64,000 bases of DNA from Salinispira sp. (GCA_965602015.1 OZ271918.1:2720001-2784000); one strand, 5' to 3'. Counted from the stretch's first letter, positions 34,355-59,828 are shown. Notes: generated by a model not told the origin, from the letters alone. Numbers and translations are program-made.

Positions 34355-35113
34355 ATGCTCATAGCTTTGATTGTTCTTGGGTCCTTAATCGCCCTATTTA
34401 TCATCATCTATTTTATAGAACCCTTTGTTATCGCCCTACTATTTTCGTGGATACTGTCGCTATTCGTGAAAAATCCCCCGTATGTGGATGTGGAAGAAGA
34501 GTTTCCTGAAGGTAAACTGCTCAAAGATAACTGGAAGGTTATCAGGGAAGAGCTTGATGTGGTCTTAAGGAATATTGAGAACATTCCCAAATTCCACGAA
34601 GTTGACAATCTGCAACGCTTTATTTCTGCGAAAGATGATAAAGCATGGAGGACCTTTATTATAAAAGGCTTTAACGAATGGTTGGAGAACAATTGCGAAC
34701 AGGTGCCAAAAACTACTGAACTGATCAAACAGATACCCCGGGTATCCATGGCAATGTTCAGTATTATTGATGGAGGTAAACATATCCCTCCTCATTACGG
34801 CTTTTTCAAATCAGTGTTGCGCTACCACCTGGCAATGATCATCCCCGAGGGCGAATGCTACATACTGGTTGATGGCCAGAAGTACAGTTGGGTTGAGGGA
34901 GATCATGTTCTTTTCGATGATACCTACAAACATGAGGTATGGAACAAAACGGATCAACGACGAGTAGTTCTATTCATCGACGTCCTTCGGGAAAAGGGCT
35001 TGCCAAAATGGATGCAGGCGATCAACCGATGGATGTTTGGGATTCTTCGGAATTCGAAAAAGCTACAAAAAGCAGCAAAAAACGCTGAAGTGGCAAAGGA
35101 CATATCCGCATAG
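34355..35113 (+). CDS. Membrane-anchored Asp/Asn beta-hydroxylase family 2OG-Fe(II) dioxygenase (LpxO-like lipid hydroxylase?)
   Basis: FSII..GKHIPPHYG, LRYHL, W.EG...LFDDTYKHEVWN...RVVLFID and an N-terminal hydrophobic anchor. Confidence 0.85.
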   Translation: MLIALIVLGSLIALFIIIYFIEPFVIALLFSWILSLFVKNPPYVDVEEEFPEGKLLKDNWKVIREELDVVLRNIENIPKFHEVDNLQRFISAKDDKAWRTFIIKGFNEWLENNCEQVPKTTELIKQIPRVSMAMFSIIDGGKHIPPHYGFFKSVLRYHLAMIIPEGECYILVDGQKYSWVEGDHVLFDDTYKHEVWNKTDQRRVVLFIDVLREKGLPKWMQAINRWMFGILRNSKKLQKAAKNAEVAKDISA

Positions 35114-35230: not shown

Positions 35231-35995
35231 TTAGCTTCGATATAGCAACGCATTCGCCGGGCAAATATCAACTTGAATGTCCGCCGGTATTTTATTTTCG
35301 AGAGCCACACTCCATAGAAGGTGATCACCATAACCGTCGCTTGTACCGTTGACCCGATGGCCGTCGTGTTCAAGCCATGGGACGCTGCAGCTATCCGCCA
35401 GGTATCCATGGCTTCCGATGCTCAAACCGAGAGCTTTAACTGCTGCCTCTTTCACCGTCCAAATTGATAAAAACTTCTTCTTGTCCAAAGTGTCAGATTC
35501 GACAATCAACTTTTCGCTTGGGTTAAAATAATACTTCATCACTGCACGGATACTCGAGGGTAGCAATGAGCGTCTCGTGTCCTCGAGATCGACCCCGATA
35601 TGACACTCCGCACTCAGGCCGATAAGCAAAGCATCCGAGCGTGTGCTCATGTTGAAAAACTCGAACTTTTGTCCGTTCATCCTTCGAAGTCGTGGCTTAC
35701 CCAGAGGACCGTTCTCAATTTCATCTCCTATATCTAATGGTTCCATGCCCTGAGAACTAAACCAGCTATCCAGTCCGCTATACAGACATATCCTACGCCG
35801 TAAATAATCCTTAGCATCATCGGTTCTGACATAAGCCTTTGTCGCATCAAAATCAACCGGACGCGGCATGATTACCGGTGATAGGTTTGAAGCGTTCCAA
35901 GGATCAGGAATTAGCTCTGGAATATCAGTGAATAATAAAAGGGCGGGATCTTGAGGACTTTCACTTTGAATAAAAACATCTTCCCTGGCGGACAT
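35231..35995 (-). CDS. Sfp-type 4'-phosphopantetheinyl transferase
   Basis: GKPRL, FNMS, IGVDLE and WTVKEAAVKALG. Confidence 0.85.
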   Translation of the reverse strand: MSAREDVFIQSESPQDPALLLFTDIPELIPDPWNASNLSPVIMPRPVDFDATKAYVRTDDAKDYLRRRICLYSGLDSWFSSQGMEPLDIGDEIENGPLGKPRLRRMNGQKFEFFNMSTRSDALLIGLSAECHIGVDLEDTRRSLLPSSIRAVMKYYFNPSEKLIVESDTLDKKKFLSIWTVKEAAVKALGLSIGSHGYLADSCSVPWLEHDGHRVNGTSDGYGDHLLWSVALENKIPADIQVDICPANALLYRS

Positions 35996-36050: not shown

Positions 36051-37295
36051 GTGGCAGAGCAACGCAGAGTCGTGATTACCGGTTTAGGAACCGTAAACCC
36101 CCTGGGAATGAACGTCAGTGAATTCTGGGATAATCTAGTAAAAGGTAAAAGCGGCGCCCGAGTAGCCCAAAATATGAACTTGGACGACTTCCATGTCCAG
36201 ATTGCTGCGGAAATTGATCTGCCCGATGTTCGGGACTTCTTTAAGCAACGAAAAATGGCACGGAGGCTGGACCGACATATTGTTCTCGGACATATCGCAG
36301 GGGTTCAAGCCGTGAAAGATGCCGGCTTTGAAGAGGCTGATAGGCCTGAGCGGATCGGGGTCCTCATCGGTACCGGCGATGCAGGGTTGATCACCCACTT
36401 TGAGCAAATCGGCCGGATTTACAAGACTGGACTTTCATCGGTCAGCCCCTTCTATATCTCAGCAGCGATCCCTAACTCGACAAGCGCCATGATTAGTATG
36501 GAATTTGGTTTCGGCGGTCCCAGCTTCTCGGTCAGCTCGGCTTGTGCGTCAGCAAATCATGCATTTGGTCTCGCAGTAAATATGATACAAAGCGGCATGA
36601 CTGATGTGATGTTCACCGGAGGAACGGAAGCAGTAGCTACAGAGCCCTCAATCGCCGCATTCGGCCAGATCGGCGCCCTATCAACAAGAAATGACGACCC
36701 CCTTACCGCATCGCGTCCATTTGACATCGACCGTGATGGTTTCGTAATGGGAGAAGGCGCAGGCGTGCTATGTCTCGAAGAACTCGAACATGCGAAAAAA
36801 CGCGGGGCAAAAATATACGGAGAAATTGCAGGATACGGATTTACCAGTGACGCCTACGACCTCGTTGCCCCTCATCCGGATGGAGAAGGCGCATCCCGAG
36901 CGATCACCATGGCCCTCGAGGCGGCCAAGGTCAATGCCGATGAATTAGATTTTATAAATACTCACGGGACCAGTACTCCACTGGGCGACAAAGCCGAATG
37001 CATGGCAGTTAATAAGGCCATCGGAGGCGATTTAGCCTCCACCATACCTGTGCATAGCACCAAAAGCATGACGGGCCATTTGATCGGGGCTGCGAGTGCG
37101 GTCGAAGCAATAGCAGGTATTATGTCGTTTGAACAGGGCGTGATACACCATACGATAAATCAATTCACAAAAGACCCTGAGCTCAATTACAACATAATCA
37201 CAGAACCCCTGGAAAAACGAGCGGAGGTGTTTTTATCGAATGCTTTTGGCTTCGGTGGTCAAAACGCATGCGTAGTATTCAAGCGGCAGCTTTAA
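36051..37295 (+). CDS. fabF: 3-oxoacyl-ACP synthase II
   Basis: RRVVITGLG, SACAS (Cys), NTHGTST, KSMTGH and NAFGFGG. Confidence 0.93.
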   Translation: MAEQRRVVITGLGTVNPLGMNVSEFWDNLVKGKSGARVAQNMNLDDFHVQIAAEIDLPDVRDFFKQRKMARRLDRHIVLGHIAGVQAVKDAGFEEADRPERIGVLIGTGDAGLITHFEQIGRIYKTGLSSVSPFYISAAIPNSTSAMISMEFGFGGPSFSVSSACASANHAFGLAVNMIQSGMTDVMFTGGTEAVATEPSIAAFGQIGALSTRNDDPLTASRPFDIDRDGFVMGEGAGVLCLEELEHAKKRGAKIYGEIAGYGFTSDAYDLVAPHPDGEGASRAITMALEAAKVNADELDFINTHGTSTPLGDKAECMAVNKAIGGDLASTIPVHSTKSMTGHLIGAASAVEAIAGIMSFEQGVIHHTINQFTKDPELNYNIITEPLEKRAEVFLSNAFGFGGQNACVVFKRQL

Positions 37296-38358
37296 GGAGT
37301 GCCCCAAAGCTTGTTGAGTTCTTGTTTCAGTCATAAATATACTTTGGGACATAGCGTTTCATTGAAATCCCTGGATTTCTCCATGCCATAAACCAGGTTT
37401 TATTCGCTTGATCATCAAGTTCGATTTTTGATCTAAATACCCGACGCATCATGCCTTTGGATAGATTGTCAAGGATTAACTCCCTATTCGCACCTGCTAT
37501 CTCGGCACGAGTAGTTTGTGTTCCTTTTCGATACTGCCTTACCCGATGAGGGATAATGCAGTTATGAAAAAGCTGGTATACCGTCAATCTGCTCATCATT
37601 GCCGACGGACATCGAGCAAACTGAACCGTCTCGCGCACATGATCAGACAAGTCTTTCCGGAATTGCCGATCACAATAATTCACCGGAAACAAAGGATTTG
37701 AACGAGCTCTAAGCTCTTTTGAAGAGATCCTGGAATGATGCATACATCGAGATAACCCCCTGACCTCATTAAATGCTTCGGGATAGCAGTGGTGTTCATC
37801 TGTATACAATCGCGCTTCGATCTGCTCTTTTTGAGCAATCAGCTTAAGGAGCACATCGAAGAGCATCTTCATTGATCGTTTTGTAGATCTGGAGTCTGCA
37901 ACTGCTGTTTCTTCTAATAATTTCCGCTTCCTTTTCTGTGCTTTTGTCATTTTACCTTTACGTCTGAGTATTGATAATCCAATCGCATATAGATATTCGC
38001 TTTCAGAACCAACCAAGATATTGATATTGTTAGGGAAGAATTGGCTTCGAGAAAAAGATTCAAAGCCATCTGCACAAAAATTCTCCTTCGATTTGAGCAA
38101 GGGTTGAAGAAAACTGAGGATTCCGAGGGCTGAGCGCGATAACCTTTCAATTCGATTTTGAATCACATCAACGCTGACACCCAGCAATCGTGTCAAATCC
38201 CATAGCCCCGAGCAGGTTACCAAGTGATTGTCATCACCGGTGCTAAATTGCAGGAAATCACCGGACTAAAATTGCAGACTCCGGCTTGAAAAAAAGGGCG
38301 ATGCTACCTTGTAATGGTTGTTACCACACAATCATTCAAGTAAGGAGCACGCCCTAAA

Positions 38359-39609: not shown

Positions 39610-40367
39610 CTAGTAAAAGCACAATGATTACAGCCCGTATGGAAGAGTTGGGTTTGAGCTTCATGGCTGCCGGTCTGGACAGTTTTCTCTCAAGCCAGGT
39701 GAATCAGGATGCGCCTCTGATTGAAGCGATCGGAGAACTCATTGATCTGGAACTGATTCCCCGAAAGGAACGAATGGCCAAAACCCGCTTGAAGGTTTCA
39801 GGAATTCCCCAGGGAAAGAATCTTGAATCCTTTGATCTGTCATGGCCGAAAGGCGGTCTTACACACAAGCAGTTCAACGAACTGTCCACCCTTGCGTTCA
39901 TTGAACGTAAAGAGAATGTCATTCTGCTTGGTCCCAGTGGATTGGGTAAAACGCACCTCATGACAGCGCTTGGACAGAAGGCATGTATGAATGGGTATAC
40001 GGCCTATTTCATCAGCTGTCTTGATTTGCTTGAACGATTACAGCGTTCCCGGGATCAGGGAAGATTGAAAAACAAACTGACCTGGTTTGGCAAACCCCAC
40101 GTTCTGTTGATTGATGAAGTTGGGTATGAAAACCTGAATGCTGAGCAGGCAGCCTTGTTTTTCCAGCTGATCAATACCCGCTATGAGCATGGATCAATCA
40201 TTCTGACCAGCAACAAAGTATTCGGGAAGTGGGGAGAAATCATGACTGATGACGCAGTTGCTACGGCCACTTTGGACCGGCTGCTTCATCACTCCCATGT
40301 GATCAGCCTGAAAGGAGACTCGTATCGGATGAAGGATCGAATGAAAATCGGAGTCGTTGACTTCTAA
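39606..40367 (+). CDS. istB: IS21 helper ATPase
   Basis: GPSGLGKT, LLIDEVGY, LDRLLHH and GDSYR. ATGA overlap with istA. Confidence 0.95.
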   Translation: MTSKSTMITARMEELGLSFMAAGLDSFLSSQVNQDAPLIEAIGELIDLELIPRKERMAKTRLKVSGIPQGKNLESFDLSWPKGGLTHKQFNELSTLAFIERKENVILLGPSGLGKTHLMTALGQKACMNGYTAYFISCLDLLERLQRSRDQGRLKNKLTWFGKPHVLLIDEVGYENLNAEQAALFFQLINTRYEHGSIILTSNKVFGKWGEIMTDDAVATATLDRLLHHSHVISLKGDSYRMKDRMKIGVVDF

Positions 40368-40819
40368 AAAATTTGCCGGAAGTCTGCAATTTAACTCCGG
40401 TGAAAAACTGCAATTTCATTCCGGCGTTGACAGTGATGGAAGATCATCAGATAGTCGACCTTCTTTTTTGCATAATAATCAATATTAAAACTCTTACTGG
40501 AAAAAGTTCGTCCACAACCTTTGCAACGAACACGAGAAATCTTTCCATCAATTTCTGTCCAATATGCGCCATGAGAACTCAACCATGAGCCTGTGCTAGG
40601 AGGTGAGCAAAAGAAGGTACACTTTGGATTCGGGCAGTGTGGCAACTTGCTCATTATCATCTCCTTGGCGCTATCTCATATATTAGAAACACCACCTGGT
40701 TATTGGCTTTGCTTCATTTAACAAGCTTTGGGGTACTCCAATTGATTTACCACTCCGACTGAATTAAGATTTAACTGAACCAGGCAGAAACAACCAAACA
40801 GAAGGAAGCCACCCAGGCC

Positions 40820-42235
40820 ATGAATCCGTTTTTTTCCACCCCCAGTTTGATTCTCGCCGGCAGCATGCTGGGCCTAACAATGGGAATTACGCTTCTGGTA
40901 CACGGCACAATGACAAAAACCAGGATGGGGCATTGGTTTGGGACTGCACTGCTCCTCGTTTCGTTTGGTATTATTTCATTCCTGTTTGATGGCCGTTTGC
41001 CGGCTTTGGTTCAACAGCTTATTTCAACTGTTCCGCTTCTTGCCGGGTTTATGGTCTATGAGTTCGGGTTCAGTCATATTTTTCGCAGACCGCTTCGGCC
41101 TGCGGTTCCCCTGATTGCCCTTTCGCTAAGCATTCCATTGCTCGCAGCGGGAACCTTGATCTGGGATAGTTTTATTTTCCGCACAGTGGCGGTAAACAGC
41201 ATTCTCGTTTTTTACTTGATTCGGGTGTCGCTACTTTGCTTTGCCCAAGCGAGGGTACTACCCAAGACCGCGGTCCGTCTTTTTGGTTTTTTAAATCTTA
41301 TGCTGGCATTGGCTCCGCCGATCAGTCTTGCGTTTATTCTTGCGGATTCCCAGACCATCACGGTTAGTAATCATGGTTTTATCAATAGTTTTTACTTCTT
41401 TATGTTTTATTTGTGGATGTTTGTCCTGGTCGGCGGGTACTTTGAGTTTCGCGGCTTGGATAATCGGCAAGAGGACAAGACACAGCGGGATGCTGAAGAA
41501 CTCCTCCTTGATAATCAGCGGTTCCTGAACAGGGTAATCAGTCATGATTTGAACGGTCCCCTGAGCAGCCTGCACAATCTTCTTGTGGAACTGAGAGATT
41601 TACTTCGCGCCGGTCAAATACCCGAGAGTCAGTTTGTCGACGTTATGGTAGACGTCAGCCGTTCGAGTAATCGCCTTCTGCAAAATGTGAGCGATCTTGG
41701 CAAGTATCAGCTTCACCGGGCACTTCCCCGTCCAAGGGAAACCCTCCTTGCACCTTTACTGTGGTCGTCCATTGAATCGATGGAGGTCGAGGCTCAGCTT
41801 CGCAATATTGAAATAATTCAGGAGTTTCAGGAAGATTTATTGGTGCTGGCTGACCAACAGGGTTTACAGGCAGTGGTTCGCAATCTTCTTGAGTTCTTCA
41901 TCGATAGGAGTCCGAAAAACAGTTTTATTCTTCTTCAGGCCGTGCGAAGCAGGGATGATAAAACGCTCATCAATATCCGGATCAAAGATCAGGGCGATGC
42001 TCTCGCTCCGGATTTTATTTCTGATTTAGCAGAATATCTGAATAGACGTCATAATCTCTATTCGAAACAGGAAAATGCCTCAAGCATTGGATTGATGGTT
42101 ATGCTAACGGTCTGCAGAGAACTCAACTGGGATTTGATTTTTTCCAACTTGGATAATAATGAGGGAGTTCAGGCGGAACTTCGCATTCCCGCGTCAGGCA
42201 GTAGGCAAAGCGGGATGATCGACCCGGAGGTCTAA
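40820..42235 (+). CDS. Multi-TM sensor histidine-kinase-like protein with degenerate ATPase domain
   Basis: About 7 TMs and H-box SHDLNGPL. N and G boxes are degenerate (RNLLEFF, DQGDA, SSIGL). Confidence 0.7.
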   Translation: MNPFFSTPSLILAGSMLGLTMGITLLVHGTMTKTRMGHWFGTALLLVSFGIISFLFDGRLPALVQQLISTVPLLAGFMVYEFGFSHIFRRPLRPAVPLIALSLSIPLLAAGTLIWDSFIFRTVAVNSILVFYLIRVSLLCFAQARVLPKTAVRLFGFLNLMLALAPPISLAFILADSQTITVSNHGFINSFYFFMFYLWMFVLVGGYFEFRGLDNRQEDKTQRDAEELLLDNQRFLNRVISHDLNGPLSSLHNLLVELRDLLRAGQIPESQFVDVMVDVSRSSNRLLQNVSDLGKYQLHRALPRPRETLLAPLLWSSIESMEVEAQLRNIEIIQEFQEDLLVLADQQGLQAVVRNLLEFFIDRSPKNSFILLQAVRSRDDKTLINIRIKDQGDALAPDFISDLAEYLNRRHNLYSKQENASSIGLMVMLTVCRELNWDLIFSNLDNNEGVQAELRIPASGSRQSGMIDPEV

Positions 42236-42765
42236 TCACCCAGTATTATTACTTCTCCGATCACCGTTACTGCAACTTTTCCATCAACGAGCGCCTGACC
42301 GATCATCGATGCAAAATACCCGTCGAAGTCGAGTTTTTTCGCCAAGAGGGTGACTGTGCTGCCTGGCAGGATGGGCTCGAGATAATATGCGCCTGCGATT
42401 CGGGTGGCCCGGGCCGGGACTGGAACCGCATCGGATGCAATATCGGTTTTCCCCCGGGTCTCGAAATAGTACATGCATAGGCCGAGCTGACCGATCATCT
42501 CGAGGGTAAAATTCCCCGGATAGAGCGGAGCGCCGGGGAAATGTCCCTGAAATACCGGATCGCCGGGATCGATATAACGATCTCCGGCGATAAGTCCGGC
42601 ATCCAGGTCAAGACCGGTGATTCGGTCAATGAATAGCAGAGGTTCCCGATGGGGAATGATTTTCTCTATATCCTTTTTTCCATAGTCGCAGCTGACCGGT
42701 AGCGTAGACGGGTCGAACAGAGCTTTTTTTCGGAAACTGCGAAGCAGCTTATCGGGATCGTTCAT
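42232..42765 (-). CDS. 3-hydroxyacyl-ACP dehydratase (FabZ/FabA family)
   Basis: IPHREPLLFIDRI and FQGHFPGAPLYPG...E...Q. Confidence 0.88.
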   Translation of the reverse strand: MNDPDKLLRSFRKKALFDPSTLPVSCDYGKKDIEKIIPHREPLLFIDRITGLDLDAGLIAGDRYIDPGDPVFQGHFPGAPLYPGNFTLEMIGQLGLCMYYFETRGKTDIASDAVPVPARATRIAGAYYLEPILPGSTVTLLAKKLDFDGYFASMIGQALVDGKVAVTVIGEVIILGD

Positions 42766-42778
42766 TGTTGTCCGGTCC

Positions 42779-42845
42779 TTTTTTTTGCGCGCTCGTTTAA
42801 TTTTGCGCGATCATGTTTTTTGCGCAATCATGTTTTTGGCGCTTG
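42779..42845. repeat. Short degenerate tandem repeat TTTTGCGC(G/A)ATCATG (about 4 copies)
   Basis: ttttgcgcgctcg / ttttgcgcgatcatg / ttttgcgcaatcatg / tttggcgc in the gap between the AOS and dehydratase genes. Confidence 0.6.
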
Positions 42846-42885
42846 TACTATCATTCGGCACTTGAATTGTGCTTTACGGCGCAAA

Positions 42886-44142
42886 CTAGGCTTTAAGGCC
42901 CTTCGCGATGACGTCTTCCATTATGTTGAGTGCTGTATCCATATCTTCCCTGTTGAACTGGGATGAGACTGAGATCCGGAACCGTCGGGCATGGGCGGGA
43001 ACCGCCGGATAGTCAATGGGCTGGAGAAACAGTCCCCGCAGCTGCATTTCGGCGGCGAAGCGAAAGAGTTTTTCTCCGCTTGGCCCGATGATCACCGGGA
43101 TGACCTGGCTTTCGCTGTCGCCGATGTCCAGGCCCATAGCCTGTATGTTTTCCTTGAGGTAGCGGGTATTGGACCAAAGTTTATCCCGCAGGCTTGAATC
43201 TCTGGTAGCCACTTCCAGGGCCTTGATGAGTCCTGCTACAACAGGGGGGCTGGGGGCGCAGGAGAAATTCCAAGCGGATGCATATCCTTTGAGATAGCGG
43301 ACTATGGATGAATTTGAGGCGATGAATCCGCCGACTCCGCCGAAGCTCTTGCTCAGGGTTCCGTATGACATTCCCACCTTATCTTCAAGGCCGAAGTACT
43401 CGCCGATGCCCCCGCCATGGTCTCCGAACATGAGGGTTGAATGAGCCTCATCCAGGTAAACCGGTGTGTTGTACGCATCCGAGAGCTTGACGATTTCCGG
43501 GAGCTTGCAGAGATCCCCGTCCATTGAATACACGCCTTCGACGCAAATCAGTTTTCTCTTGTCTTTGAACTGCTCGAGCTTTTGCTCGAGGCTGTTCATA
43601 TCATTGTGATCGAAAAAGACCATCTTGGCGCCGGAAAGGGTTCCTCCGTCGATCAGGCTTTTATGGATTTTTTCATCGAAGATGACCACATCGCCTTTAC
43701 GGAGCAGTCCCTGGAGGGCGCCCACGTTTCCGCCGTATCCCGATGAGAATAAAAGGGCATCTTCCTTGCCTTTGAGTTTTGCCAGTTTTTTAGCGAACTC
43801 AAGGTGGAGATCCAATGTGCCCGATACAAGCGGTGCTCCGGAGGAACTCATGCCGTATTTATCCACCGCTTCCTTCACCGCTTCAAGCACTTCCGGATGA
43901 GTGGACAGACCCAGGTAATTATAGCTGGTCATGTTTATCATCTTCCGGCGTTTCCCATCCAGATTACTGAGTATTTCAGTCTCCGCGCTGGGCGCCTTCA
44001 ACAGGCTCTGTCCGGTAAAACTGAATGCAGTCTGAACTTCGGGATCCAGGAACCATTCCTCGAAATCCCGAGGCGGGTCCAGAACATTGGGACTGTCGTT
44101 ATAATGAAAATCCGCGAGACTAAAATCGGTAGCTTTTGCCAT
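42886..44142 (-). CDS. PLP-dependent alpha-oxoamine synthase (serine palmitoyltransferase-like)
   Basis: SYNYLGL, FSSGY, EGVYSMDGD, DEAHS and GTLSKSFG (PLP Lys). The Spt-like role is inferred from gene context. Confidence 0.8.
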   Translation of the reverse strand: MAKATDFSLADFHYNDSPNVLDPPRDFEEWFLDPEVQTAFSFTGQSLLKAPSAETEILSNLDGKRRKMINMTSYNYLGLSTHPEVLEAVKEAVDKYGMSSSGAPLVSGTLDLHLEFAKKLAKLKGKEDALLFSSGYGGNVGALQGLLRKGDVVIFDEKIHKSLIDGGTLSGAKMVFFDHNDMNSLEQKLEQFKDKRKLICVEGVYSMDGDLCKLPEIVKLSDAYNTPVYLDEAHSTLMFGDHGGGIGEYFGLEDKVGMSYGTLSKSFGGVGGFIASNSSIVRYLKGYASAWNFSCAPSPPVVAGLIKALEVATRDSSLRDKLWSNTRYLKENIQAMGLDIGDSESQVIPVIIGPSGEKLFRFAAEMQLRGLFLQPIDYPAVPAHARRFRISVSSQFNREDMDTALNIMEDVIAKGLKA

Positions 44143-44300
44143 GGTAATTCCTCATTTTGGGATAGATCCGGATGTGGGGTGGATGATGAGAAAGACGGGA
44201 TGATATCCAGGTATGACCGGAGGCCCCATCCCCTGCCGGAACGTCACCGTCCGGCGGAACGGAAATGATCCCGAGCCGCCGGTGGTGAAAGTGGAGCGTA

Positions 44301-44543
44301 CTACTCGACGTGCTCCATAAATTTGTCAGCGAGTCCGTCGATGTCACCGATGTCAGCCAGTTCGGAACGGGGGATCTTGATATCAAGGTCCCGCATTGAA
44401 CAGCTGACAACTTCGATAATATCGAGGCTGTTGGCGCCGTAATCCTTCATGGACTTGGAGGCGTCAATTTCATCCATTTCGATATCATCAAGATTATCGA
44501 CGATGTTTTTTTTGATGACTTCAATGACTTCGTTCTTCGTCAT
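44301..44543 (-). CDS. Acyl carrier protein, AcpK-like (beta-branching donor type)
   Basis: Acidic 80-aa protein with a GANSLD phosphopantetheine motif instead of GxDS. Confidence 0.88.
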   Translation of the reverse strand: MTKNEVIEVIKKNIVDNLDDIEMDEIDASKSMKDYGANSLDIIEVVSCSMRDLDIKIPRSELADIGDIDGLADKFMEHVE

Positions 44544-44610
44544 GATGTCTCTCCTCTATTAAATCCGTCTCAGTACGGCAAACTCACGGGCGAAAAACCC
44601 GTGGACCGAA

Positions 44611-45432
44611 TCAGGACGTTTGGTTCCGCTTCTCCTTCCAGAGGAGGAAGCGGTGCATGGTATTATCTGAAAAAGGATGGCCGTAGTCAACATTCACCAC
44701 CTGACCATTCATTCCGTCCATGTATCCGCTTGCAAAGGCGAATACCGCCTTTCCGCATTCGTCGGGAGTGAGAATGAGACTTTCATCCGCAAGCCCCTGC
44801 TCCCGAATGTAATCGAAAAACTCTTCCCCAAAAATGGCCGAGAAGCTTTCGGTTTTCACCTGTCCGAATCGAATGACATTAACCCGGGAACCCTCGGGCA
44901 GAAGATGGGCGGCCATATACTTGCCGAAAAATTCCAACAATGCCTTGGAGGCCGCGACATAATCATACCCCGGATAAAAATGATCGGGGCCGTCGCTCGA
45001 TATGCCGATTACCTTCGCCGGATATCTGCCGAATTTCGCCTTTATTTTCCGGGTGTATTCAATCATCGGCCAGGTTGAGTAGTCCAGGGTTTTATACAGG
45101 CTTCGTTTTTTGTATGCGTCGAGATTCTTCATGGTTGCCGCATAGCCCACATTGCTGATAAATATGTCGATGCCTTCGGCAATCCCGGCGGCTTTCTCGA
45201 GCAATGCGTCAGTATCATCATCGTGGGAAACATCAGCCTGAACCAACAGCGGTTCCGGTGCCCCGGCATCGGAAAACTGCTTCTTTAATTCGTCCATGTC
45301 CGCCGATCCCCATTTATAGGTGAGGATCGTTTGGGCGCCGGCCTTCCCGAAATAGAGGGCCGATGCCAGACCGATGCCCTTGGTGCCGCCGGTAATCAGA
45401 ACTGTTTTTCCGCTCATGTCTATTGTAATCAT
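44611..45432 (-). CDS. SDR, probable enoyl-ACP reductase (FabL/FabI-like)
   Basis: TGGTKGIG and a Y-x6-K arrangement (YDYVAASK). Confidence 0.7.
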   Translation of the reverse strand: MITIDMSGKTVLITGGTKGIGLASALYFGKAGAQTILTYKWGSADMDELKKQFSDAGAPEPLLVQADVSHDDDTDALLEKAAGIAEGIDIFISNVGYAATMKNLDAYKKRSLYKTLDYSTWPMIEYTRKIKAKFGRYPAKVIGISSDGPDHFYPGYDYVAASKALLEFFGKYMAAHLLPEGSRVNVIRFGQVKTESFSAIFGEEFFDYIREQGLADESLILTPDECGKAVFAFASGYMDGMNGQVVNVDYGHPFSDNTMHRFLLWKEKRNQTS

Positions 45433-45549
45433 GTTTTCTCCTCTCAGGCCTAATCTCCGCCCCGGCGCTGAGCCTCGCTATGATTTGCGGGCTTAGCCCA
45501 TCGCAGACGGATACATCAATAATTTTGCCGTTGCAGTATAGAGATTTTT

Positions 45550-46362
45550 TTAGCCAGCGTACAAATCGTCGATTATTTTTTTGGTTTCCGGATATCCGAA
45601 ACTCAGCGCATGCATCATATCCTCCTGAAGGCGGGCTTCGATGAGCAGCTTTTTTTTCACTGCTGCCAGGGAGTACTTAAGCAATTGCACAGATTTGGGA
45701 TTTTTTTCGGCGATCTGAATGGCGATATCCCGGGCTTTTTCCAGCACCTCGGAGCGCGGAAGAATGTAATTGATATTGGTGGATTTTTCCGCCAGCTCCC
45801 GTCCCTTGTACCGCTTCCCGGTAAACATCATTTCATTCGCAATGTAGGATCCCACGGCCTGCTGAAGCAGGGTGGTGGTTCCCATTCCCGGGGTGAATCC
45901 CATGTTCATAAACACCGTTCCATACCGGGCCTCGCGGGCGGCGATGATTATGTCGGAGCACAGTCCGATGACAAAGCCCCCTCCCATCGCATGTCCTTCC
46001 ATGGCGGAAATCACGGGAAACCGGCAGTTGATAAGCCGCTCGGAAATCACCAAATCCCGCACAACGATTTTACCGCTTGCCAGCTCCATAAGGCTGTCCT
46101 TGTCAGCACCGCCGGAAAATGTGCTGTCCAGCCCACGGAGAATCAAAACCCGGGGATTCGATTCTTCAATTTCATCGAGGGCCAGGAGAAAGTCGGCGAC
46201 AAAATCATGGGAGAATACATTCTGCCCGGGAACATCATGCATGAACAGGGTCGCAATTTCCCTCTCGTCGATTGCCCAGGAGACCCGGCCGTAGCGCTCG
46301 TGAAGCTCCTCGGCTGAACTCCCCTCCTGGTATTCGCTTATTTCTGCTTTTTTGCTCATCAT
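45550..46362 (-). CDS. ECH2 decarboxylase (PksI-like)
   Basis: GHAMGGGFVIGLCSD, FMNMGFTPGMGTT and C-terminal EDMMH. Confidence 0.85.
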   Translation of the reverse strand: MMSKKAEISEYQEGSSAEELHERYGRVSWAIDEREIATLFMHDVPGQNVFSHDFVADFLLALDEIEESNPRVLILRGLDSTFSGGADKDSLMELASGKIVVRDLVISERLINCRFPVISAMEGHAMGGGFVIGLCSDIIIAAREARYGTVFMNMGFTPGMGTTTLLQQAVGSYIANEMMFTGKRYKGRELAEKSTNINYILPRSEVLEKARDIAIQIAEKNPKSVQLLKYSLAAVKKKLLIEARLQEDMMHALSFGYPETKKIIDDLYAG

Positions 46363-47324
46363 TGCATTCCTTTTCCCGATATGGGATTCTCCGGCTTGAA
46401 CCGGGCGAACCACCCGGGAGCCTCTCCGTTGGCAAATGCTTCAAGCCCCGAAAGCACCGCAGGATCTTCCATCCGCGTTAACAGAGCGTCTCTACCTTGC
46501 GAGAGTTTGCTTTCAAAGCTGCTGTCTATCGCAGCAGAGAAAAAGTCCTTGGCGGAGGCCAGGGCCCCGGGTTCGGCGCGCATCATGGTCTTGATTGTGA
46601 TTTTCGCTTTTCGTTCGATCTGATCCGCGGGGTAGACCTCATCTGCCAGTCCGTAATCCCTCGCCCGTTCGGCTCCGATGCGCTGAGCGCTGAGAACGAG
46701 ATAGCGAAATCGCTGAGGGTTCATCCTCAGGGAGAACACATAGGGAAGCACATTGTAGGGAACAAGTCCGAACAGCACTTCCGACAGTTCCCAACTTGCG
46801 GTTTCCGACGCGATAACCACATCACAGGCGGCGGCAAGCCCCACCCCCCCGGCCTTTACGTCACCCTCGACCAGTGCGATTACCGGTTTCCCGCCTTTCA
46901 TTATTCGGGCCAGCAGCCGGGCATATGCATCAACCGCCTTCCGACGCAGTGCGACCGGGTCGCCGGACGATGGATCATTCGGGTCGCCGGCCGACGGATC
47001 ATTTGTGTCGCCGGCCGCCGGAGCATTCTGGCTGCCCGCCGCCGGAGCATCGGGGTCGCCGGGCGCAGCGGCAGCGCTATTGGAGCCCTCGCCCTGTTCT
47101 TCAAGGCTTTGCTGAAGATTATCCAGATCCATTCCGAGACAAAAGCTTTCCTCTCCGGATCGTATCAGGATTAGTTTGACCCGCGGATTGTTTAAGGACG
47201 ACTCAATTTCGGCAGACAGGGCCGCAATGCCGTCGTAGTTTAAACGATTTCCCCGCCCATCGGACATGTGAATAACCGCAAGCCCGCTATCTTCATAGGA
47301 GCTGACGGTTTTAGGCGAAGTCAT
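46359..47324 (-). CDS. ECH1 dehydratase (PksH-like)
   Basis: FCLGMD, GDVKAGGVGLAAACD and LSEVLFGLVPYNVLP. Confidence 0.85.
   Translation of the reverse strand: MTSPKTVSSYEDSGLAVIHMSDGRGNRLNYDGIAALSAEIESSLNNPRVKLILIRSGEESFCLGMDLDNLQQSLEEQGEGSNSAAAAPGDPDAPAAGSQNAPAAGDTNDPSAGDPNDPSSGDPVALRRKAVDAYARLLARIMKGGKPVIALVEGDVKAGGVGLAAACDVVIASETASWELSEVLFGLVPYNVLPYVFSLRMNPQRFRYLVLSAQRIGAERARDYGLADEVYPADQIERKAKITIKTMMRAEPGALASAKDFFSAAIDSSFESKLSQGRDALLTRMEDPAVLSGLEAFANGEAPGWFARFKPENPISGKGMQ
46957..47076. repeat. 24-bp in-frame tandem repeat x5 inside ECH1
   Basis: GGGTCGCCGGNCGNYGGATCATTY-like units at 46957, 46981, 47005, 47029 and 47053, encoding AGDPNDPS-like octapeptides. Confidence 0.8.
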
Positions 47325-48534
47325 AGCTGCGGTACCAGTCCTTCACCGCCTTGAGAACCAGAAGCCCCGAGCCCTGGTAATGTTTTTTGTACCAGCCGTC
47401 GAGAACCGTGAAGTCTGGTTCAAAATCGGGATTTTCGATATAGGTTTCCCGCAGTTTTTCTAGTTCTTCGTATTCCTCGACGCTGCATACCCGCCGGGCG
47501 TCGAGCTTTTGGTCTATTTTCATTTTTGCCAGTTCGGCCTTTGCGCCGGGAAGTACTTTGCCCGAATAGAATTCGCCGATAGCCCCGGATCCGTAGGCAA
47601 ACAGGGCGATGTCCTTGCCCTCCACATCGTCGGCATGGTTCACCAGTGCCGCCAGCCCCGTGAGATTGCTGGTGCCGTATGTCGATCCCACCCGCCGGCT
47701 GTAATCCAGAGCGGGCAATACCCGGGCATTAAAGTCTACCTTGAGCTCAGCCTTCTTTTTTGGAGCATTTTCCCGGGTCAGGGCCCGATGGGCCTGGAAG
47801 GCGATTCCCGGAAAGGGGGTGTGGTACACGAAATAGGCGAAATCCTTGTCGAAGTCGGTGGATCCGGCATTTCGCTGGTAATCCTCATATGCTCCCTGGA
47901 CCGCATCCATGTAGGAGAACAGGCTTACTTCATTGTTTCCCACTTCTGCCTGAGCGGAGGGACGGAAGGTATCGTAGATGTCGGTTGTCCAGGATCCCTT
48001 CTTCTCGGGATAGTATTCGAGTATTTTCGGCGTATCGGAGATTAGCGCCGCCGCTGCACATCCGCCGAGCACAAATTCTTCCATGAGGCCCAGATGCTGC
48101 CGGGAAAAATCAGTGGCGATAACCAGGGCTTTTTTTCCTTTATTGAGCCCGGAAGCGATCCAGTTCACCGCCGCATCGATTCCCGCAACCCCGGAGTAGC
48201 AGGCGAACTTCGTTTCGAAGTTGCGGACGTTTGATCCCAGGCCGAGGGCGCGGTGTATGTTTGTCGATATGGGTTTACCGAAATCAACCGAACCTTCGGT
48301 ACCGACGATGAGCATGCCGATATCCTTTTTATCTTCCTCGCTCAGTATGGCAAGGGCGGCATTGGCCCCCATGGTTACGGTATCTTCCCAGGCCGGATTG
48401 AGGCTTCGGGTTTCGATGAGATAGTCGTTTTTGATCTGCTCGGGATCCCTGCCCCGGGCAACGGCCAGGTCGGCCTGATTGAGACACATGGATGTGCCGT
48501 ACATGTTCAGCTTTTCTATGCCTACTCTATTCAT
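47311..48534 (-). CDS. HMG-CoA/HMG-ACP synthase (PksG-like)
   Basis: VGIE, EDTVTM, ETKFACYSG (Cys), YHTPF (His) and FAYGSG. RBS CAGGAG before the ATG at 48534. Confidence 0.9.
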   Translation of the reverse strand: MNRVGIEKLNMYGTSMCLNQADLAVARGRDPEQIKNDYLIETRSLNPAWEDTVTMGANAALAILSEEDKKDIGMLIVGTEGSVDFGKPISTNIHRALGLGSNVRNFETKFACYSGVAGIDAAVNWIASGLNKGKKALVIATDFSRQHLGLMEEFVLGGCAAAALISDTPKILEYYPEKKGSWTTDIYDTFRPSAQAEVGNNEVSLFSYMDAVQGAYEDYQRNAGSTDFDKDFAYFVYHTPFPGIAFQAHRALTRENAPKKKAELKVDFNARVLPALDYSRRVGSTYGTSNLTGLAALVNHADDVEGKDIALFAYGSGAIGEFYSGKVLPGAKAELAKMKIDQKLDARRVCSVEEYEELEKLRETYIENPDFEPDFTVLDGWYKKHYQGSGLLVLKAVKDWYRSYDFA

Positions 48535-48572
48535 GCTTTGCTCCTGTATGTTCACGCTCCAGAGACAAGGTC

Positions 48573-49316
48573 CTATGGGGCGTAGGTAAGTCCGGCGGCA
48601 ACCCGTATGTCCTCGCCGGTAATAAATCCCGCCTCATCGGTGGAGAGGTAGTATACCGCGGAGGCAATTTCTTCTGCGGTGCCCACTCTCCGGGCGGGGC
48701 AGTGCTTGACCCAATAGTCTTTAAGCTGATGAGCCATGTTATCGTCTGTCATGTCTGTAGGAACGAAGCCTACGGTTACGATGTTGCTGGTTATGCCCTT
48801 TTTCCCGTATTCCTTGGCGATGGTGAGGCTCATCCCGTGAAGACCCGCTTTGGCCGCCGCGTAATTGACCTGTCCGCTTGAACCGTAGGCCGCCAGGGAA
48901 GACACATGGACAAGCCGGCCCTTTCTGTTGGAGAGGAAGTGGAGGAGAAAACTTCTGGACACAATAAACGGCGCGGTCAGGTCAACATCGATAACGGTCT
49001 TCCACTCCTCGTCGCTCATCAGGGCAGCCGCGTTGTCCCTGAGAGTGGCGGCGTTGTTTACCACAGCGGTCACGCTGCCGAAGTCTTTGATGGCGTTTTC
49101 GCACACTTCTTCAATGGCGTGGTGGTCTACCAGGTCGAGCTGGTAGGATCGGATGTCGGCATCGGAACGCAGTTCCTTGGCCTGGGCTATAGTCTCGTCG
49201 GCGGCTTTACTGTTGGATGCGTAGGTAAAACCCACGTCCCATCCCTCTGAAATAAAACGGAGCACGATGGCCCGCCCGATTCCCCGGGATCCCCCGGTAA
49301 TAAATGCTGCGGGCAT
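48573..49316 (-). CDS. 3-oxoacyl-ACP reductase (FabG-like SDR)
   Basis: TGGSRGIG, NNA and GQVNYAAAK. TAATG overlap with the KS stop. Confidence 0.88.
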   Translation of the reverse strand: MPAAFITGGSRGIGRAIVLRFISEGWDVGFTYASNSKAADETIAQAKELRSDADIRSYQLDLVDHHAIEEVCENAIKDFGSVTAVVNNAATLRDNAAALMSDEEWKTVIDVDLTAPFIVSRSFLLHFLSNRKGRLVHVSSLAAYGSSGQVNYAAAKAGLHGMSLTIAKEYGKKGITSNIVTVGFVPTDMTDDNMAHQLKDYWVKHCPARRVGTAEEIASAVYYLSTDEAGFITGEDIRVAAGLTYAP

Positions 49317-50599
49317 TATTCCTCCCACTTTTTGATCAGGCTGCAGCAATTAAGGCCGCCGAATCCGAATGAATTTTTAAGCATGTACTTCACCTCCCAC
49401 TCCACGGGACCGTCGGCGCACACATCGGCCTCGATCTGGGGATCCAGGTTATCGACGTTGATGGTCGGGTGCAGTTTACCGTGATTCATCTGCATAATGC
49501 CCCCGATGGTTTCTACCAGGGGACTGGCCCAGCAGGTATGGCCAAGCATGGATTTGGGGGCGTTGATTTTCATGTTCTTGATATGCTCGCCAAACACGTT
49601 TTTGAGCGCGGTGAACTCCTGCACGTCTCCGGCGGGGGTGCCGGTCGCGTGGCAGTTCGCGTAGGAGACTTGCTCGGGCTTAACGCCGGCATCCTCCAGG
49701 ACCTTCCGCATGACCCAGGCCTGATGTTCGGATCCAGGCATGGGCAGATGGTTCGCGTTGGCATTTGCCCGGACCGCTAAGATTTCCGCGTATATCTTCG
49801 CGCCGCGGGCTTGGGCTGACTCCAGGGTCTCCACCACCAGAGCGGCGGATCCGTGACTGTACACGAATCCGTTTCGTCCGGTATCGAAGGGCCGACAGGC
49901 CTTTTCGGGATTATCATTAAGCTCTTTATCCATCACCACCGAATTGATGATGACTGAAGCCTGAATATCAGGCTCGGCGACATCGAAAAGGGCTCCGCTG
50001 ACCAGGGCCCGCTCGACCTCTCCGGACTTAATATCCCTGAAGGCATCCCTCAGAGCCAGGTTACCGCTGGCGCAGGCGCCGCCAACGGTGTAGCAGGGGC
50101 CGTGGACCTGCAGAACTTCGGAGATCAGGGCGGGCACATTGTTGTCGATGGCTTCTACGGAGCTGAGGGGATCGAGATACTCGGGCTCCTCCTGATACTG
50201 CTTGCTCATTTTATATATGTACTTTGAGTTGAGGTTATGACCGCCGACTACAACCATGGTCATGTAGGGATCGATATCCCGTGCTTCCAGACCGGCATCG
50301 AGCCAGGCATTTTGCGCCGTCAGGACGGCAGTTCGGGACGAGAATGTGGCACTGCGGAAGAGTTTGCGGACCCTCTTGAACTTTGCCTCCCCGATATTGT
50401 CCTTGATGCGCTCCAGGGCCGCGGCGGTGTCGTAATCTCCCAGATCCCCTCCAACCCGGTTTTCACAGGCATCGAGGTCAAGGCTCTCCCATTTTTTTAC
50501 TCCGGATTTTCCGGCCAGCAGGTTATCGTAATACTGGTCAACGTCATCTCCCAAGGGATTGATTGTTGCCATACCGGTTATAACTATTCGAGTGCTCAT
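49316..50599 (-). CDS. Stand-alone ketosynthase (PksF-like, catalytic Cys retained)
   Basis: VVGGHNL, TVGGACASG, NCHATGT, KSMLGH and NSFGFGG. Confidence 0.88.
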   Translation of the reverse strand: MSTRIVITGMATINPLGDDVDQYYDNLLAGKSGVKKWESLDLDACENRVGGDLGDYDTAAALERIKDNIGEAKFKRVRKLFRSATFSSRTAVLTAQNAWLDAGLEARDIDPYMTMVVVGGHNLNSKYIYKMSKQYQEEPEYLDPLSSVEAIDNNVPALISEVLQVHGPCYTVGGACASGNLALRDAFRDIKSGEVERALVSGALFDVAEPDIQASVIINSVVMDKELNDNPEKACRPFDTGRNGFVYSHGSAALVVETLESAQARGAKIYAEILAVRANANANHLPMPGSEHQAWVMRKVLEDAGVKPEQVSYANCHATGTPAGDVQEFTALKNVFGEHIKNMKINAPKSMLGHTCWASPLVETIGGIMQMNHGKLHPTINVDNLDPQIEADVCADGPVEWEVKYMLKNSFGFGGLNCCSLIKKWEE

Positions 50600-50662
50600 A
50601 CTTTGTTAACTCCATTGCCCGTCGCCATAAAAACGCGAGCGGGATTTATAAATTGACTGCTA

Positions 50663-51610
50663 CTAGCTGATTTTGTCGATTGCCTCGATGGTGCCTGCGG
50701 GTTTTGCCCGTAATTCTTTGTAGAAAGATTTCCACAGGCCGCCTAAAACCTTGCCCGGTCCGACCTCGAGAACCAGATCGTCTTCTGCGCCGGTTATGAT
50801 TGAGTTGTCGATGAGGTACTGCATGGATGAAACCCATTGCACCGTTGAAACGATCTGTTCACCGGCCCGCAGCCGGGCTTTGTCTCCGCTCTCAAGCGGC
50901 CTTCCCGTAACATTCGAAATAATGGGCAGCTTAGGATCGGAAAAGCGTAGGTTCGCGGTGCGCTGCTGGAATTCCTTTCGGGCGCTCTCCAGAAGAGGCG
51001 AATGAAAGGGGCCGCTGACTTTGAGCCGAACGACTTTCATTGCGCCGGCCTCATCAAGGGCGGCTTCGGCGGCATCAAGGCCTTCGGCGGTGCCGGCAAT
51101 CACCATCTGAACCGGAGAACTGTGATTGGCTATGAATACACCCTTTCCCGCGAGGGGTTCTACCACAGCCCGGGCATCTTCAAAGGGGAGGCCCAGGACC
51201 GCTGACATTGCGCTGGGTCCCACGGGGCTGTCGGCAGCCCGGGAGCCTTTTTCCATCACTTCGCCGCGGATTGCCACCGCTTCAAAGAGGTCTTGAGTCG
51301 AAAGCACACCGGCTTCGTGCAAGGCGGCGTACTCGCCGACGGAAAAACCCATGACCGCGTCGGGTGTGAATCCCTTGGAACGCAGCAGGGCTGCCGCGCT
51401 AATGTTCATCAGGGTGACAGCCGCCTGGGTATTGTCGGTTTGCTTGAGGTCATCCTCGCTTCCATCAAACATCAACGCCGCCATGTCTTTTCCCAGCACC
51501 CGGGAAGCCGAGGCAAACAGCCCCCGGACCTCATCGCTGGCCTCGTACAAATCTTTCGCCATACCCGGATACTGGGCTCCCTGACCGGGAAATAAAAAAA
51601 CCGTGCTCAT
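50663..51610 (-). CDS. fabD: Malonyl-CoA:ACP transacylase
   Basis: FPGQGAQ, GFSVGEY, R, VSGPFHS and EVGPG. Confidence 0.9.
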   Translation of the reverse strand: MSTVFLFPGQGAQYPGMAKDLYEASDEVRGLFASASRVLGKDMAALMFDGSEDDLKQTDNTQAAVTLMNISAAALLRSKGFTPDAVMGFSVGEYAALHEAGVLSTQDLFEAVAIRGEVMEKGSRAADSPVGPSAMSAVLGLPFEDARAVVEPLAGKGVFIANHSSPVQMVIAGTAEGLDAAEAALDEAGAMKVVRLKVSGPFHSPLLESARKEFQQRTANLRFSDPKLPIISNVTGRPLESGDKARLRAGEQIVSTVQWVSSMQYLIDNSIITGAEDDLVLEVGPGKVLGGLWKSFYKELRAKPAGTIEAIDKIS

Positions 51611-51622
51611 ATAAACCGTCCC

Positions 51623-52750
51623 TTACAATGACTTGCCGTATACCCGGTGAGTCCGATAATGCTCGGCTCCCCAGTTTTCAAGCATATTCCTCAGATCGAG
51701 ATTGGATTCCAGAATCCAGCTGAACTCCGCCCCCGCTATGCCCATGCCGACGCTTCGCTTGTACAGTTCGTAGACGAACAGGGCGTCGATTCCCTTCTTT
51801 TGGTAGGCCTTGCGCACGCCGAATGCGGCGATGCGGATGTTCTCGCATTTTTTCTTGCCCGCCAGAAGCTTAAAGACCCCGAAAGGAAGAATTTTACCGT
51901 TTAAACCGTGGAAGACCGGGTTTAGATCGGGGATGGGGAAGGCAAAACCCACCGGCTCGCCGTCGACATAGGCGAACAAGGTAATATCGGGCATTATCGC
52001 CATCTTCAACCCGTCGGCCAGTTGATCGAATTCCTGTTTATTCCAGGGGACATATCCCCAGTTGTCAGTCCATGCGTCATCCCACATATCCCGGACGTAG
52101 TCAAGATCGCGCTTCCAATTCTTCATATCGACATTGCGGATCTCCACCCTGCTCCGTTTCCGGGCCAGTTCGGCAACCCGGACGATTTTGTCGCTGAGTT
52201 TCATGGTGGTTTTCATGCGGTAGGAATACAGATCCTGGTCCTTGGTGTAACCGGCGGACTCATAGTGTTTTCCGTAGTACGGCGGGTTGTAGGGCATCTC
52301 GATAACCGGCAGGGTTTCGAAACTGTCTATCTGGTTACCAAGCTGATAATTGGTCGAACCGTGAACCGGTCCCATGGCCTTTTCCATTCCCCGCTCGCGC
52401 AGCCAATCCTCTGCGGCGGCGAACAGCGCGGAAGATACCTCTTCATCGTCGTAGGCCTCGAAGAAGCCCACAAATCCGGTTTTGGTATTCTGATACGTGC
52501 AAAAAGCGCGGTCCACGATGGCGACGATGCGGCCCACAACCTCACCGTCCCTCCAGGCGAGGAACTCCTGCAGCTCCGCATGATCGAATAGTCCGTTATG
52601 CTTGCGGTCGAAAAGGTGCTTCACATCCATATCTAAGGGCGGGACCCAGGCGTCATATTTCGTCGCCTGGCCGCGGTACACCCGATAAGGAAATTTCATA
52701 AAGCGTGAAAAATCCTTTTTGCCGTCTAACGGCCTCACTTCAACTGCCAT
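51623..52750 (-). CDS. Tandem-GNAT acyltransferase resembling bacterial ceramide synthase (bCerS/YghO family)
   Basis: F.KFPYRVY...WVPPL, VVGRI.AI, GFFE, MPYNPPYY, NWGYVP and SWILESN. Confidence 0.7.
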   Translation of the reverse strand: MAVEVRPLDGKKDFSRFMKFPYRVYRGQATKYDAWVPPLDMDVKHLFDRKHNGLFDHAELQEFLAWRDGEVVGRIVAIVDRAFCTYQNTKTGFVGFFEAYDDEEVSSALFAAAEDWLRERGMEKAMGPVHGSTNYQLGNQIDSFETLPVIEMPYNPPYYGKHYESAGYTKDQDLYSYRMKTTMKLSDKIVRVAELARKRSRVEIRNVDMKNWKRDLDYVRDMWDDAWTDNWGYVPWNKQEFDQLADGLKMAIMPDITLFAYVDGEPVGFAFPIPDLNPVFHGLNGKILPFGVFKLLAGKKKCENIRIAAFGVRKAYQKKGIDALFVYELYKRSVGMGIAGAEFSWILESNLDLRNMLENWGAEHYRTHRVYGKSL

Positions 52751-52788: not shown

Positions 52789-52818
52789 AGTATACGGGGA
52801 ATTCTCAAAAATTGGCAA
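52789..52818 (-). promoter_or_regulatory. Candidate sigma70-type promoter of the lipid cluster
   Basis: Minus strand reads TTGCCA-18 bp-TATACT, about 40 bp upstream of the GNAT start. Confidence 0.45.

Positions 52819-58422: not shown

Positions 58423-59828
<1,406 letters not shown>

Follow-up and report, generated by a model that had tools for sequence, protein, structure and literature searches.

Introduction

The closest described relatives of the system reported here are the β-branching cassettes of modular polyketide synthases (PKS), as in bacillaene (AcpK/PksF/G/H/I), curacin (CurB-F), thiomarinol and bongkrekic acid (BonF-I), and the bacterial ceramide pathway of Caulobacter, E. coli BL21 and Sphingomonas. 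In canonical cassettes a non-elongating ketosynthase (KS0) makes the acetyl-donor acyl carrier protein (ACP), according to PMC12560621, and in Caulobacter the order given in PMC11087976 is that serine palmitoyltransferase (Spt) is followed by bacterial ceramide synthase (bCerS) and then CerR. A 64 000-nucleotide stretch of Salinispira sp., a spirochaete of salt mats (GCA_965602015.1, OZ271918.1:2720001-2784000; hereafter the window, with positions counted from its first letter) was analysed, in which eleven co-directional open reading frames (ORFs) on the minus strand (42232..52750) combine features of both systems. On the evidence of the sequence, the operon probably builds a methyl-branched chain on a dedicated ACP, which an α-oxoamine synthase (AOS) would condense with a small amino acid, the product then being N-acylated and reduced to a ceramide-type lipid.

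With the PKS cassettes the operon shares a PKS-type 3-hydroxy-3-methylglutaryl (HMG) synthase (HMGS), ECH1, ECH2, a GANS-type ACP, a PksF-related ketosynthase (KS) and the predicted chemistry. Unlike them, it has no modular PKS or acceptor ACP bearing the tryptophan (W) flag, its KS keeps the catalytic Cys and its ACP lacks the donor Arg; the system also travels with a dedicated ketoreductase (KR), dehydratase (DH), enoyl reductase (ER), FabF, phosphopantetheinyl transferase (PPTase) and AOS. With the Spt/AcpR/AasR/bCerS/CerR pathway it shares an ACP gene placed before the oxoamine synthase gene, a full-length bCerS homologue and a CerR-like gene elsewhere in the genome, whereas de novo synthesis and branching on the ACP would supply its chain, in place of loading by AasR, and its AOS falls outside the known Spt clade, though on the Spt side.

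Fogacin (Sato et al. 2019) reportedly, by its title, comes from a type II PKS with β-alkylation and pairs of KS and chain length factor (CLF). Seven orphan type II-linked HMG synthases are also noted in 10.1101/509463. Both share with the operon β-branching outside modular PKSs, on discrete enzymes, so that 'PKS-free' is not new by itself; unlike fogacin, the operon lacks a CLF, has a fully reducing fatty acid synthase set and probably ends in a membrane lipid. In the open-access literature no description was found of a branching cassette combined with a reducing fatty acid synthase, an oxoamine synthase and bCerS, and the system is real and conserved, and apparently uncharacterised.

Gene content of the operon and genome

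The eleven ORFs (table 1) were recovered in the order given in the first-pass annotation, with the GNAT gene first and the FabZ-like gene last. Its fold assignments were each backed by Pfam and NCBIfam, the GANS motif that it had read in the ACP was present, and the overlaps that it had mentioned were located at three junctions (KS/FabG, 1 nt; HMGS/ECH1, 14 nt; ECH1/ECH2, 4 nt), the remaining intergenic gaps being 12–158 nt. Curated NCBIfam cut-offs were passed only by the FabG-like protein (broad models) and ECH2 (PRK07110), the other operon proteins being divergent. The HMGS is of PKS type, with CurD and PksG scoring above the CoA-type enzymes (≤192 bits) among PDB matches, and with ECH1 and ECH2 it makes up the branching set of a canonical cassette. 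HMGS loop length was tried as a guide to acceptor size and dropped: the cluster HMGS has a short loop of mevalonate type, yet CurD combines a long loop with a short substrate. ECH1 (46359-47324) carries a low-complexity Gly/Asp/Pro/Ala insert of about 40 residues. The ER-like protein constitutes a family of its own, with 81 representatives at E ≤ 1e-30.

The host genome is closed (3.87 Mb); among named relatives Salinispira pacifica is the nearest, with an AOS that is 86% identical. The earlier observation that the window holds no modular PKS was extended to the complete closed genome, in which none was found and all four ketosynthases are stand-alone. The genome contains one FabD, the operon's own, and two ACPs, the operon ACP and the housekeeping AcpP; neither has Trp at what we take to be the flag position of acceptor ACPs. 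Housekeeping FabG, FabZ, FabV and FabH are encoded elsewhere, as is a mevalonate operon with a separate HMGS of mevalonate type.

Conservation across Spirochaetota

A survey of 401 Spirochaetota genomes at an HMGS threshold of E ≤ 1e-80 gave matches in 30, of which 21 were assigned to type 1 (58–100% identity, 11 families, the present genome, G000, included) and nine to type 2 (41–44%). The synteny search that had been proposed was run on 24 related type-1 loci (L001-L005, L036-L052, L062, L063). The nine-gene core, in the order KS-KR-HMGS-ECH1-ECH2-ER-ACP-AOS-DH, recurred intact in 14 of these (L001, L005, L036, L037, L040, L042-L044, L046-L050 and L052, with two genes inserted within the otherwise intact order in L046), and most of the others end at contig edges. 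Since the order from KS to DH is intact in 14 other loci, the arrangement is not due to chance. Across related loci the full KS/KR/DH/ER/ACP set is kept together with HMGS, ECH1 and ECH2. The 20 other type-1 genomes, bins of 73–99% completeness, were also screened for long KS frames; a frame of more than 1000 aa with a KS was listed for just one (G057), three matches being unlisted.

Of the 21 type-1 genomes, 20 have a close AOS (65% or more), the exception being a 73%-complete bin, whereas all 380 other genomes lack one. A bCerS homologue was found in all 21 type-1 genomes, compared with 132/401 overall and 1/9 of type 2, and a CerR-like gene in 16/20 type-1 versus 0/9 type-2 genomes.

Ketosynthase and acyl carrier protein

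In the tree the operon KS is sister to the PksF/KS0 enzymes (support 100/100), so the relationship to PksF proposed in the first-pass annotation stands; it is not itself a KS0, since the catalytic Cys lost in KS0 enzymes is kept in a Cys176-His317-His354 triad. This Cys was retained in 20/20 type-1 and 4/4 type-2 KSs and in the enzyme of a high-GC metagenome locus (L160), and in 0/7 KSs of PKS-linked cassettes (six Ser, one Met). The operon KS thus likely elongates as well as decarboxylates, judging from its residues.

A donor-ACP motif, G(A/V)(N/D)Sx(D/E)R, was read from seven fetched references. The Arg two residues past GANS, present in all seven of these PKS donor ACPs, is missing from 21/21 aligned cluster ACPs, and the operon ACP, with GANS and no Arg, falls below the PRK07117 cut-off. 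The set is therefore not an ordinary AcpK/PksF-type cassette, as had been supposed; because the KS keeps Cys-His-His and the ACP lacks the donor-type Arg, a self-contained synthase is more likely than an add-on cassette, and the single dedicated ACP would serve as both donor and chain carrier. Its gene lies directly before that of the AOS, like acpR-spt in E. coli BL21 and Sphingomonas, systems in which Spt is reported to prefer its dedicated ACP (PMC9386255).

The mechanism implied by the first-pass annotation differs from the single-carrier scheme in the carrier only and overlaps with it: the GANS-ACP would be an acetyl donor alone, the KS would decarboxylate despite its Cys, and branching would take place on an AcpP-borne chain, the product still being a branched amino-lipid. 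The sister position of the KS to KS0 enzymes and a pocket region that differs from FabF speak for this version, as does the normal use of separate donor and acceptor ACPs by HMG synthases (PMC11522927). We nevertheless consider it doubtful, given that the Cys is kept throughout the PKS-free clade, that the donor Arg is missing, and that the dedicated KR, DH, ER and PPTase would duplicate what housekeeping FabG, FabZ and FabV already do.

Alpha-oxoamine synthase

The AOS carries the GTLSK265 motif and the stacking His160 of its fold, invariant or nearly so, and Sphingobacterium Spt was its best solved-structure match (273 bits; next 227). All Spt cut-offs of NCBIfam were missed (333/640, 264/500 and 222/670 bits), whereas three reference Spts pass theirs, and the BioF/Kbl-type models scored 318–343 bits, close to the best Spt score. 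A first tree of 45 rows was run in quick mode. A careful maximum likelihood (ML) tree was then built from 20 rows chosen by hand from a 40-row set, and approximately unbiased (AU) tests were performed on it; the AOS trees use few references, with the Alicyclobacillus bioF product standing for BioF. In the 20-row tree a separate clade of cluster AOS enzymes is resolved (100/99); where the tree divides Kbl, BioF and HemA from Spt, this clade falls to the Spt side (94/96), next to other AOS enzymes encoded beside bCerS. Grouping with Kbl (p = 0.015), grouping with BioF (p = 0.0006) and an exclusive clade with known Spt (p = 0.015) were each rejected. Of the relationship with Spt that had been proposed, the likeness and the side of the tree were borne out, and membership of the known clade and the family cut-offs were not.

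A role of the cassette for a modular PKS elsewhere, together with a BioF or Kbl identity of the AOS, is very improbable. The nearness of the BioF/Kbl-type scores to the best Spt score is in its favour, but the closed genome contains no modular PKS that could use the cassette in trans and no BioD above cut-off; a separate true Kbl, the only other AOS in the genome, passes its cut-off, and the AU tests reject both groupings, so that this explanation is largely refuted. None of the sequence-level outcomes that the first-pass annotation had named as refuting it was observed.

At the Asn52 position the AOS has the Tyr of Sphingomonas Spt, and a Lys follows the stacking His. Cysteate fatty acyltransferases (CFAT) are reported to need a Lys280-equivalent for cysteate use (PMC13692747); in the AOS this position, placed through the Sphingobacterium Spt alignment, is Cys295, and CFAT identity was rejected for lack of the Lys. 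The enzyme resembles, by description rather than by placement in that study's tree, the 'clade B' Spt-like enzymes of the Black Sea (PMC11334938). An ESM Atlas search with the AOS returned generic aminotransferase clusters only. In other spirochaete loci (L076, L077, L092 and L095) AOS genes lie directly beside bCerS, with GGSPL replacing the GSRF of Spt and an Arg after the stacking His; these represent a further non-canonical Spt-like clade.

Ceramide synthase homologue

The GNAT protein, described as bCerS-like in the first-pass annotation, aligned over its full length with E. coli BL21 YghO/ECD_02850 (33% over 382 aa, E 1e-67), the acyltransferase gene product of the ceramide cluster of that strain (PMC9386255). 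In a tree it nests among homologues adjoining spt or cerR. By sequence, in comparison with YghO, it is a true bCerS homologue, and it likely N-acylates a long-chain base. Three bCerS homologues are encoded in the genome, although the AOS and the true Kbl are its only oxoamine synthases. The two more distant paralogues (G000:C1:296255-297442 and 3036135-3037328) each lie beside a sugar-transporter-like gene, and the former also lies near a gene that reads as acyltransferase-like.

An unlikely alternative is that the AOS releases the branched chain as a free amino-ketone or amino-alcohol metabolite, a signal or antimicrobial, and that the bCerS gene is an unrelated neighbour. It would fit the separation of the AOS clade from known Spt and its stand-alone members (L117-L123), around which no lipid genes occur for about 1.5 kb, the frequent unlinked position of the GNAT gene, and the occurrence of the module with other end enzymes or none (PlsC in type 2; a Serratia plasmid). 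It is opposed by the co-occurrence of bCerS and CerR-like genes with type 1 and their near absence from type 2, by the GNAT gene at the operon head here and in L001, L005 and L036, and by the related loci, where neither an exporter nor a tailoring gene accompanies the core. A ceramide-type end point is preferred.

Variant modules

Eight metagenome loci were found through an ER relative, five of which (62–72% GC) carry two ER-like genes; of these five, three show an AOS and two (L160, L161) most of the core. Among the matches listed, the named relatives of the high-GC AOS belong to Myxococcota, Desulfobacterales, Saprospiraceae, Acidobacteriota, Aquabacterium and Ca. Jettenia. One Myxococcota AOS and one Myxococcota HMGS lie on contigs of equal length, which suggests that the two are linked. 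The AOS of the anammox bacterium Ca. Jettenia (P0386 cluster) falls in the same broad clade, with 57% identity to the L160 enzyme, and ACP-AOS fusions occur in this clade (P0308, P0342), their fused ACPs not being GANS-type. A viral scan with one ER-family relative gave no match.

Serratia fonticola plasmid CP013914.1 (L167/L168) carries a PKS-free DH-KS-KR-HMGS-ECH1-ECH2-ER module with a divergent ACP and acyltransferase (AT), the module being partly duplicated across the record ends and several of its ORFs broken. The type-2 loci L058 and L061 are arranged as KS(Cys)-S-adenosylmethionine (SAM) methyltransferase-KR-HMGS-ECH1-ECH2-ACP-PlsC-AcpS, with ER, DH and AOS absent from the locus; they may provide α- and β-methylated chains for phospholipids. 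From the type-2, Serratia and high-GC variants, it seems that one PKS-free module for branching has been combined repeatedly with end enzymes of different kinds.

Flanking genes and branched primer supply

The window genes at 35231-37295, a second FabF and a PPTase, are assigned to the system because this FabF, usually accompanied by a PPTase, adjoins the core in 12 related loci; Pfam-confirmed PPTases were found beside the core in L005, L036 and L050. At the position of Ile108, the chain-length gate of FabF as described in PMC9006962, all but one of 11 copies of the second FabF carry Asp or Glu. Both genes are separated from the operon by an IS21 element and a kinase gene. The IS21-family element, labelled from the sequence reading (istA 38359-39609, istB 39606-40367, within 37327-40660), appears to be inserted in a second, interrupted transposase (37327-38223 and 40391-40660) and is absent from the same-genus locus L036. 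An orphan membrane histidine-kinase-like gene (40820-42235), convergent with fabZ with a 4-nt overlap, has a counterpart (34% identity) at the same place in L036.

Upstream of the GNAT gene lies a σ70-like promoter candidate, and a 12-bp terminator was found at the end of the preceding gene; across the window the counts of both elements were at chance level (promoters 18 versus 17.4 expected, terminators 22 versus 20.8). The OlsC/LpxO-like hydroxylase gene was seen beside the cluster in this genus only, and its product is a possible source of a 2-hydroxy acyl chain.

Table 1. Features of the operon and its surroundings in the window.
Feature	Position	Strand	Evidence or remark
bCerS/YghO-family GNAT, likely ceramide synthase (N-acyltransferase), 375 aa	51623..52750	-	33% identical to E. 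coli BL21 YghO over 382 aa
FabD malonyl transacylase	50663..51610	-	PF00698; sole match in genome
PksF-related KS, Cys176-His317-His354 triad	49316..50599	-	PRK07103 335 bits, cut-off 445; motifs, trees
FabG-type KR	48573..49316	-	TIGR01830 223 bits
PKS-type HMGS (β-branching)	47311..48534	-	best PDB matches CurD 254, PksG 236 bits
ECH1, PksH-like dehydratase	46359..47324	-	PF00378; PRK07112 102 bits
ECH2, PksI-like decarboxylase	45550..46362	-	PRK07110 251 bits, cut-off 215
ER-like short-chain dehydrogenase/reductase, FabI-type Y-x6-K motif	44611..45432	-	best PDB match Thermus FabI, 74 bits
Dedicated GANS-type ACP without donor Arg	44301..44543	-	PRK07117 55 bits, cut-off 79; directly upstream of AOS
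Spt-like AOS, pyridoxal phosphate Lys265, His160	42886..44142	-	best PDB match Sphingobacterium Spt, 273 bits
FabZ-type DH	42232..42765	-	PF07977; TIGR01750 70 bits
Second FabF	36051..37295	+	beside core in 12 related loci; own clade and motif
PPTase	35231..35995	-	PF01648
OlsC/LpxO-like lipid 2-hydroxylase	34355..35113	+	PF05118; NF052565 158 bits, below cut-off; also in L036
σ70-like promoter candidate	52789..52818	-	just upstream of GNAT gene; 10/12 consensus match, best of the strand

Just upstream of the operon, and also upstream in L036, are phosphate butyryltransferase, butyrate kinase and 2-ketoisovalerate oxidoreductase (Vor) genes (56313-60962), which are read as branched-chain acyl-CoA metabolism; VorB is above its cut-off in the genome. 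A separate locus (L127:1071-4451, G000:C1:1660070-1663450) encodes a single protein of 1126 aa in which E1 alpha and E1 beta of a 2-oxoacid dehydrogenase are fused to a lipoyl domain and FabH, and which may by itself supply primers for branched fatty acids. G210 has a 1210-aa E1 frame, and an E1 match of G332 is split over two frames.

Myxobacteria have an alternative isovaleryl-CoA route, and the cassette could be its ACP version: it would then mainly make an isovaleryl primer on the ACP for bulk fatty acids, with the AOS and GNAT taking their chains from the common acyl pool. No acceptor is simpler than acetoacetyl, which CurD uses (PMC11522927), the only FabD of the genome lies in the operon, and full-length E1 dehydrogenase matches were found in only 5/20 other type-1 genomes. 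PMC4511686 also gives 11.7% iso-C15:0 for S. pacifica. However, the same source lists anteiso and iso-even acids, beyond the reach of the cassette, and iso-C15:0 in S. africana as well. A dedicated KR and DH are conserved although primer synthesis would require neither, and the close AOS tracks the cassette in 20/21 genomes. Because VorB and the E1-lipoyl-FabH fusion provide other routes to branched primers, a purely iso-primer role is weakened further, and we regard it as rather unlikely.

Discussion

The operon likely works as a type II fatty acid synthase that is self-contained and has β-branching built in, and its steps can be proposed from the gene assignments. The PPTase would activate the dedicated ACP, FabD would load malonyl, and the Cys-bearing KS would prime it, as acetyl-ACP, and condense. 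HMGS, ECH1 and ECH2 would convert the β-keto group to a 3-methyl enoyl group, with ordinary extension cycles carried out by KR, DH and ER, plus the second FabF in spirochaetes. The AOS would condense a small amino acid (most likely serine, with alanine or glycine as possibilities) with the acyl-ACP, giving a 3-keto long-chain base, to which the bCerS homologue would add an N-acyl chain, and the unlinked CerR-like reductase would reduce the ketone. The overall picture in the first-pass annotation, of a type II synthase working with a branching cassette towards a branched aminolipid, holds in outline, with the KS0/donor-ACP and Spt labels corrected.

Several observations weigh against this pathway. 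The known Spt enzymes form a clade that does not include the AOS (AU p = 0.015), and FastTree with 40 rows puts them nearer Kbl/BioF (88); since this differs from the ML tree, the deep position of the AOS is soft. Ser81/Arg82 and Met271 of Sphingobacterium Spt are replaced by Ala103/Pro104 and Asn292. Of 17 related loci for which sequence upstream exists, only four have the GNAT gene next to the core; no GNAT gene is seen in the high-GC loci within the stretches examined, and CerR-like similarity is low (25% to E. coli CerR). In L002 the ACP is not followed by an AOS, the core is split in G012, and the Serratia fonticola plasmid module lacks an AOS. Two type-1 genomes (G020, G058) hold another Spt-like gene within a few genes of the bCerS gene, which could account for their bCerS. 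As the genomes are kin, the counts overstate independence, and co-occurrence is an association rather than an independent test.

Granted the branched-ceramide pathway, a single terminal iso branch formed from acetoacetyl is the foremost candidate, at a little under an even chance; one mid-chain methyl, such as in a 9-methyl base, is less probable, and repeated isoprenoid-like methyls somewhat less so again. β-Branching would place methyls on odd acyl carbons, that is, at base C5, C9, C13 and so on, or at an iso end. Sorangium has a C9-methyl-C20 sphingosine; among the matches listed, it was not found among the named AOS/HMGS relatives. Known routes to branched bases start from primers derived from branched-chain keto acids or rely on a SAM methyltransferase. 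Described methyl-branched bases include the iso bases of Bacteroidota, fungal 9-methyl-4,8-sphingadienine and tunicate aplidiasphingosine (PMC2444003); their methyls, at base C5, C9, C13, C17 or an odd-chain iso terminus, are on odd acyl carbons and would be within reach of β-branching.

In the most elaborate version, one KS and one ACP would alternate branching and reductive cycles to give an isoprenoid-like chain with a methyl at every fourth carbon, from malonyl only and with no isopentenyl diphosphate (IPP), and the AOS would yield a phytanyl- or geranylgeranyl-type base like aplidiasphingosine. The gene set is exactly sufficient for such cycles, and the two ERs of the high-GC variants would correspond to one for each kind of double bond; we hold this version to be improbable. 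For S. pacifica, a cultured and non-pathogenic relative (DSM 27196), PMC4511686 lists an unidentified aminolipid among the major lipids, together with C16:0 2-OH (1.8%), which is absent from three related type strains. This lipid phenotype, with the iso, anteiso and iso-even acids given above, is compatible with the proposed pathway and is not proof of it.

β-Branching, known as polyketide tailoring, is here likely put to use in making membrane lipids, with one carrier and a KS able to elongate; this bears on the evolution of the cassettes and on how branching is programmed without modules. If the isoprenoid-like version were true, membrane chains of isoprenoid-like type would have a third biosynthetic route. 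If the branched-ceramide pathway is true, spirochaetes would join the likely makers of sphingolipids, and the operon would offer a genetic source for the odd-chain and branched ceramides of anoxic habitats, many structures of which have no known producer according to PMC11334938.

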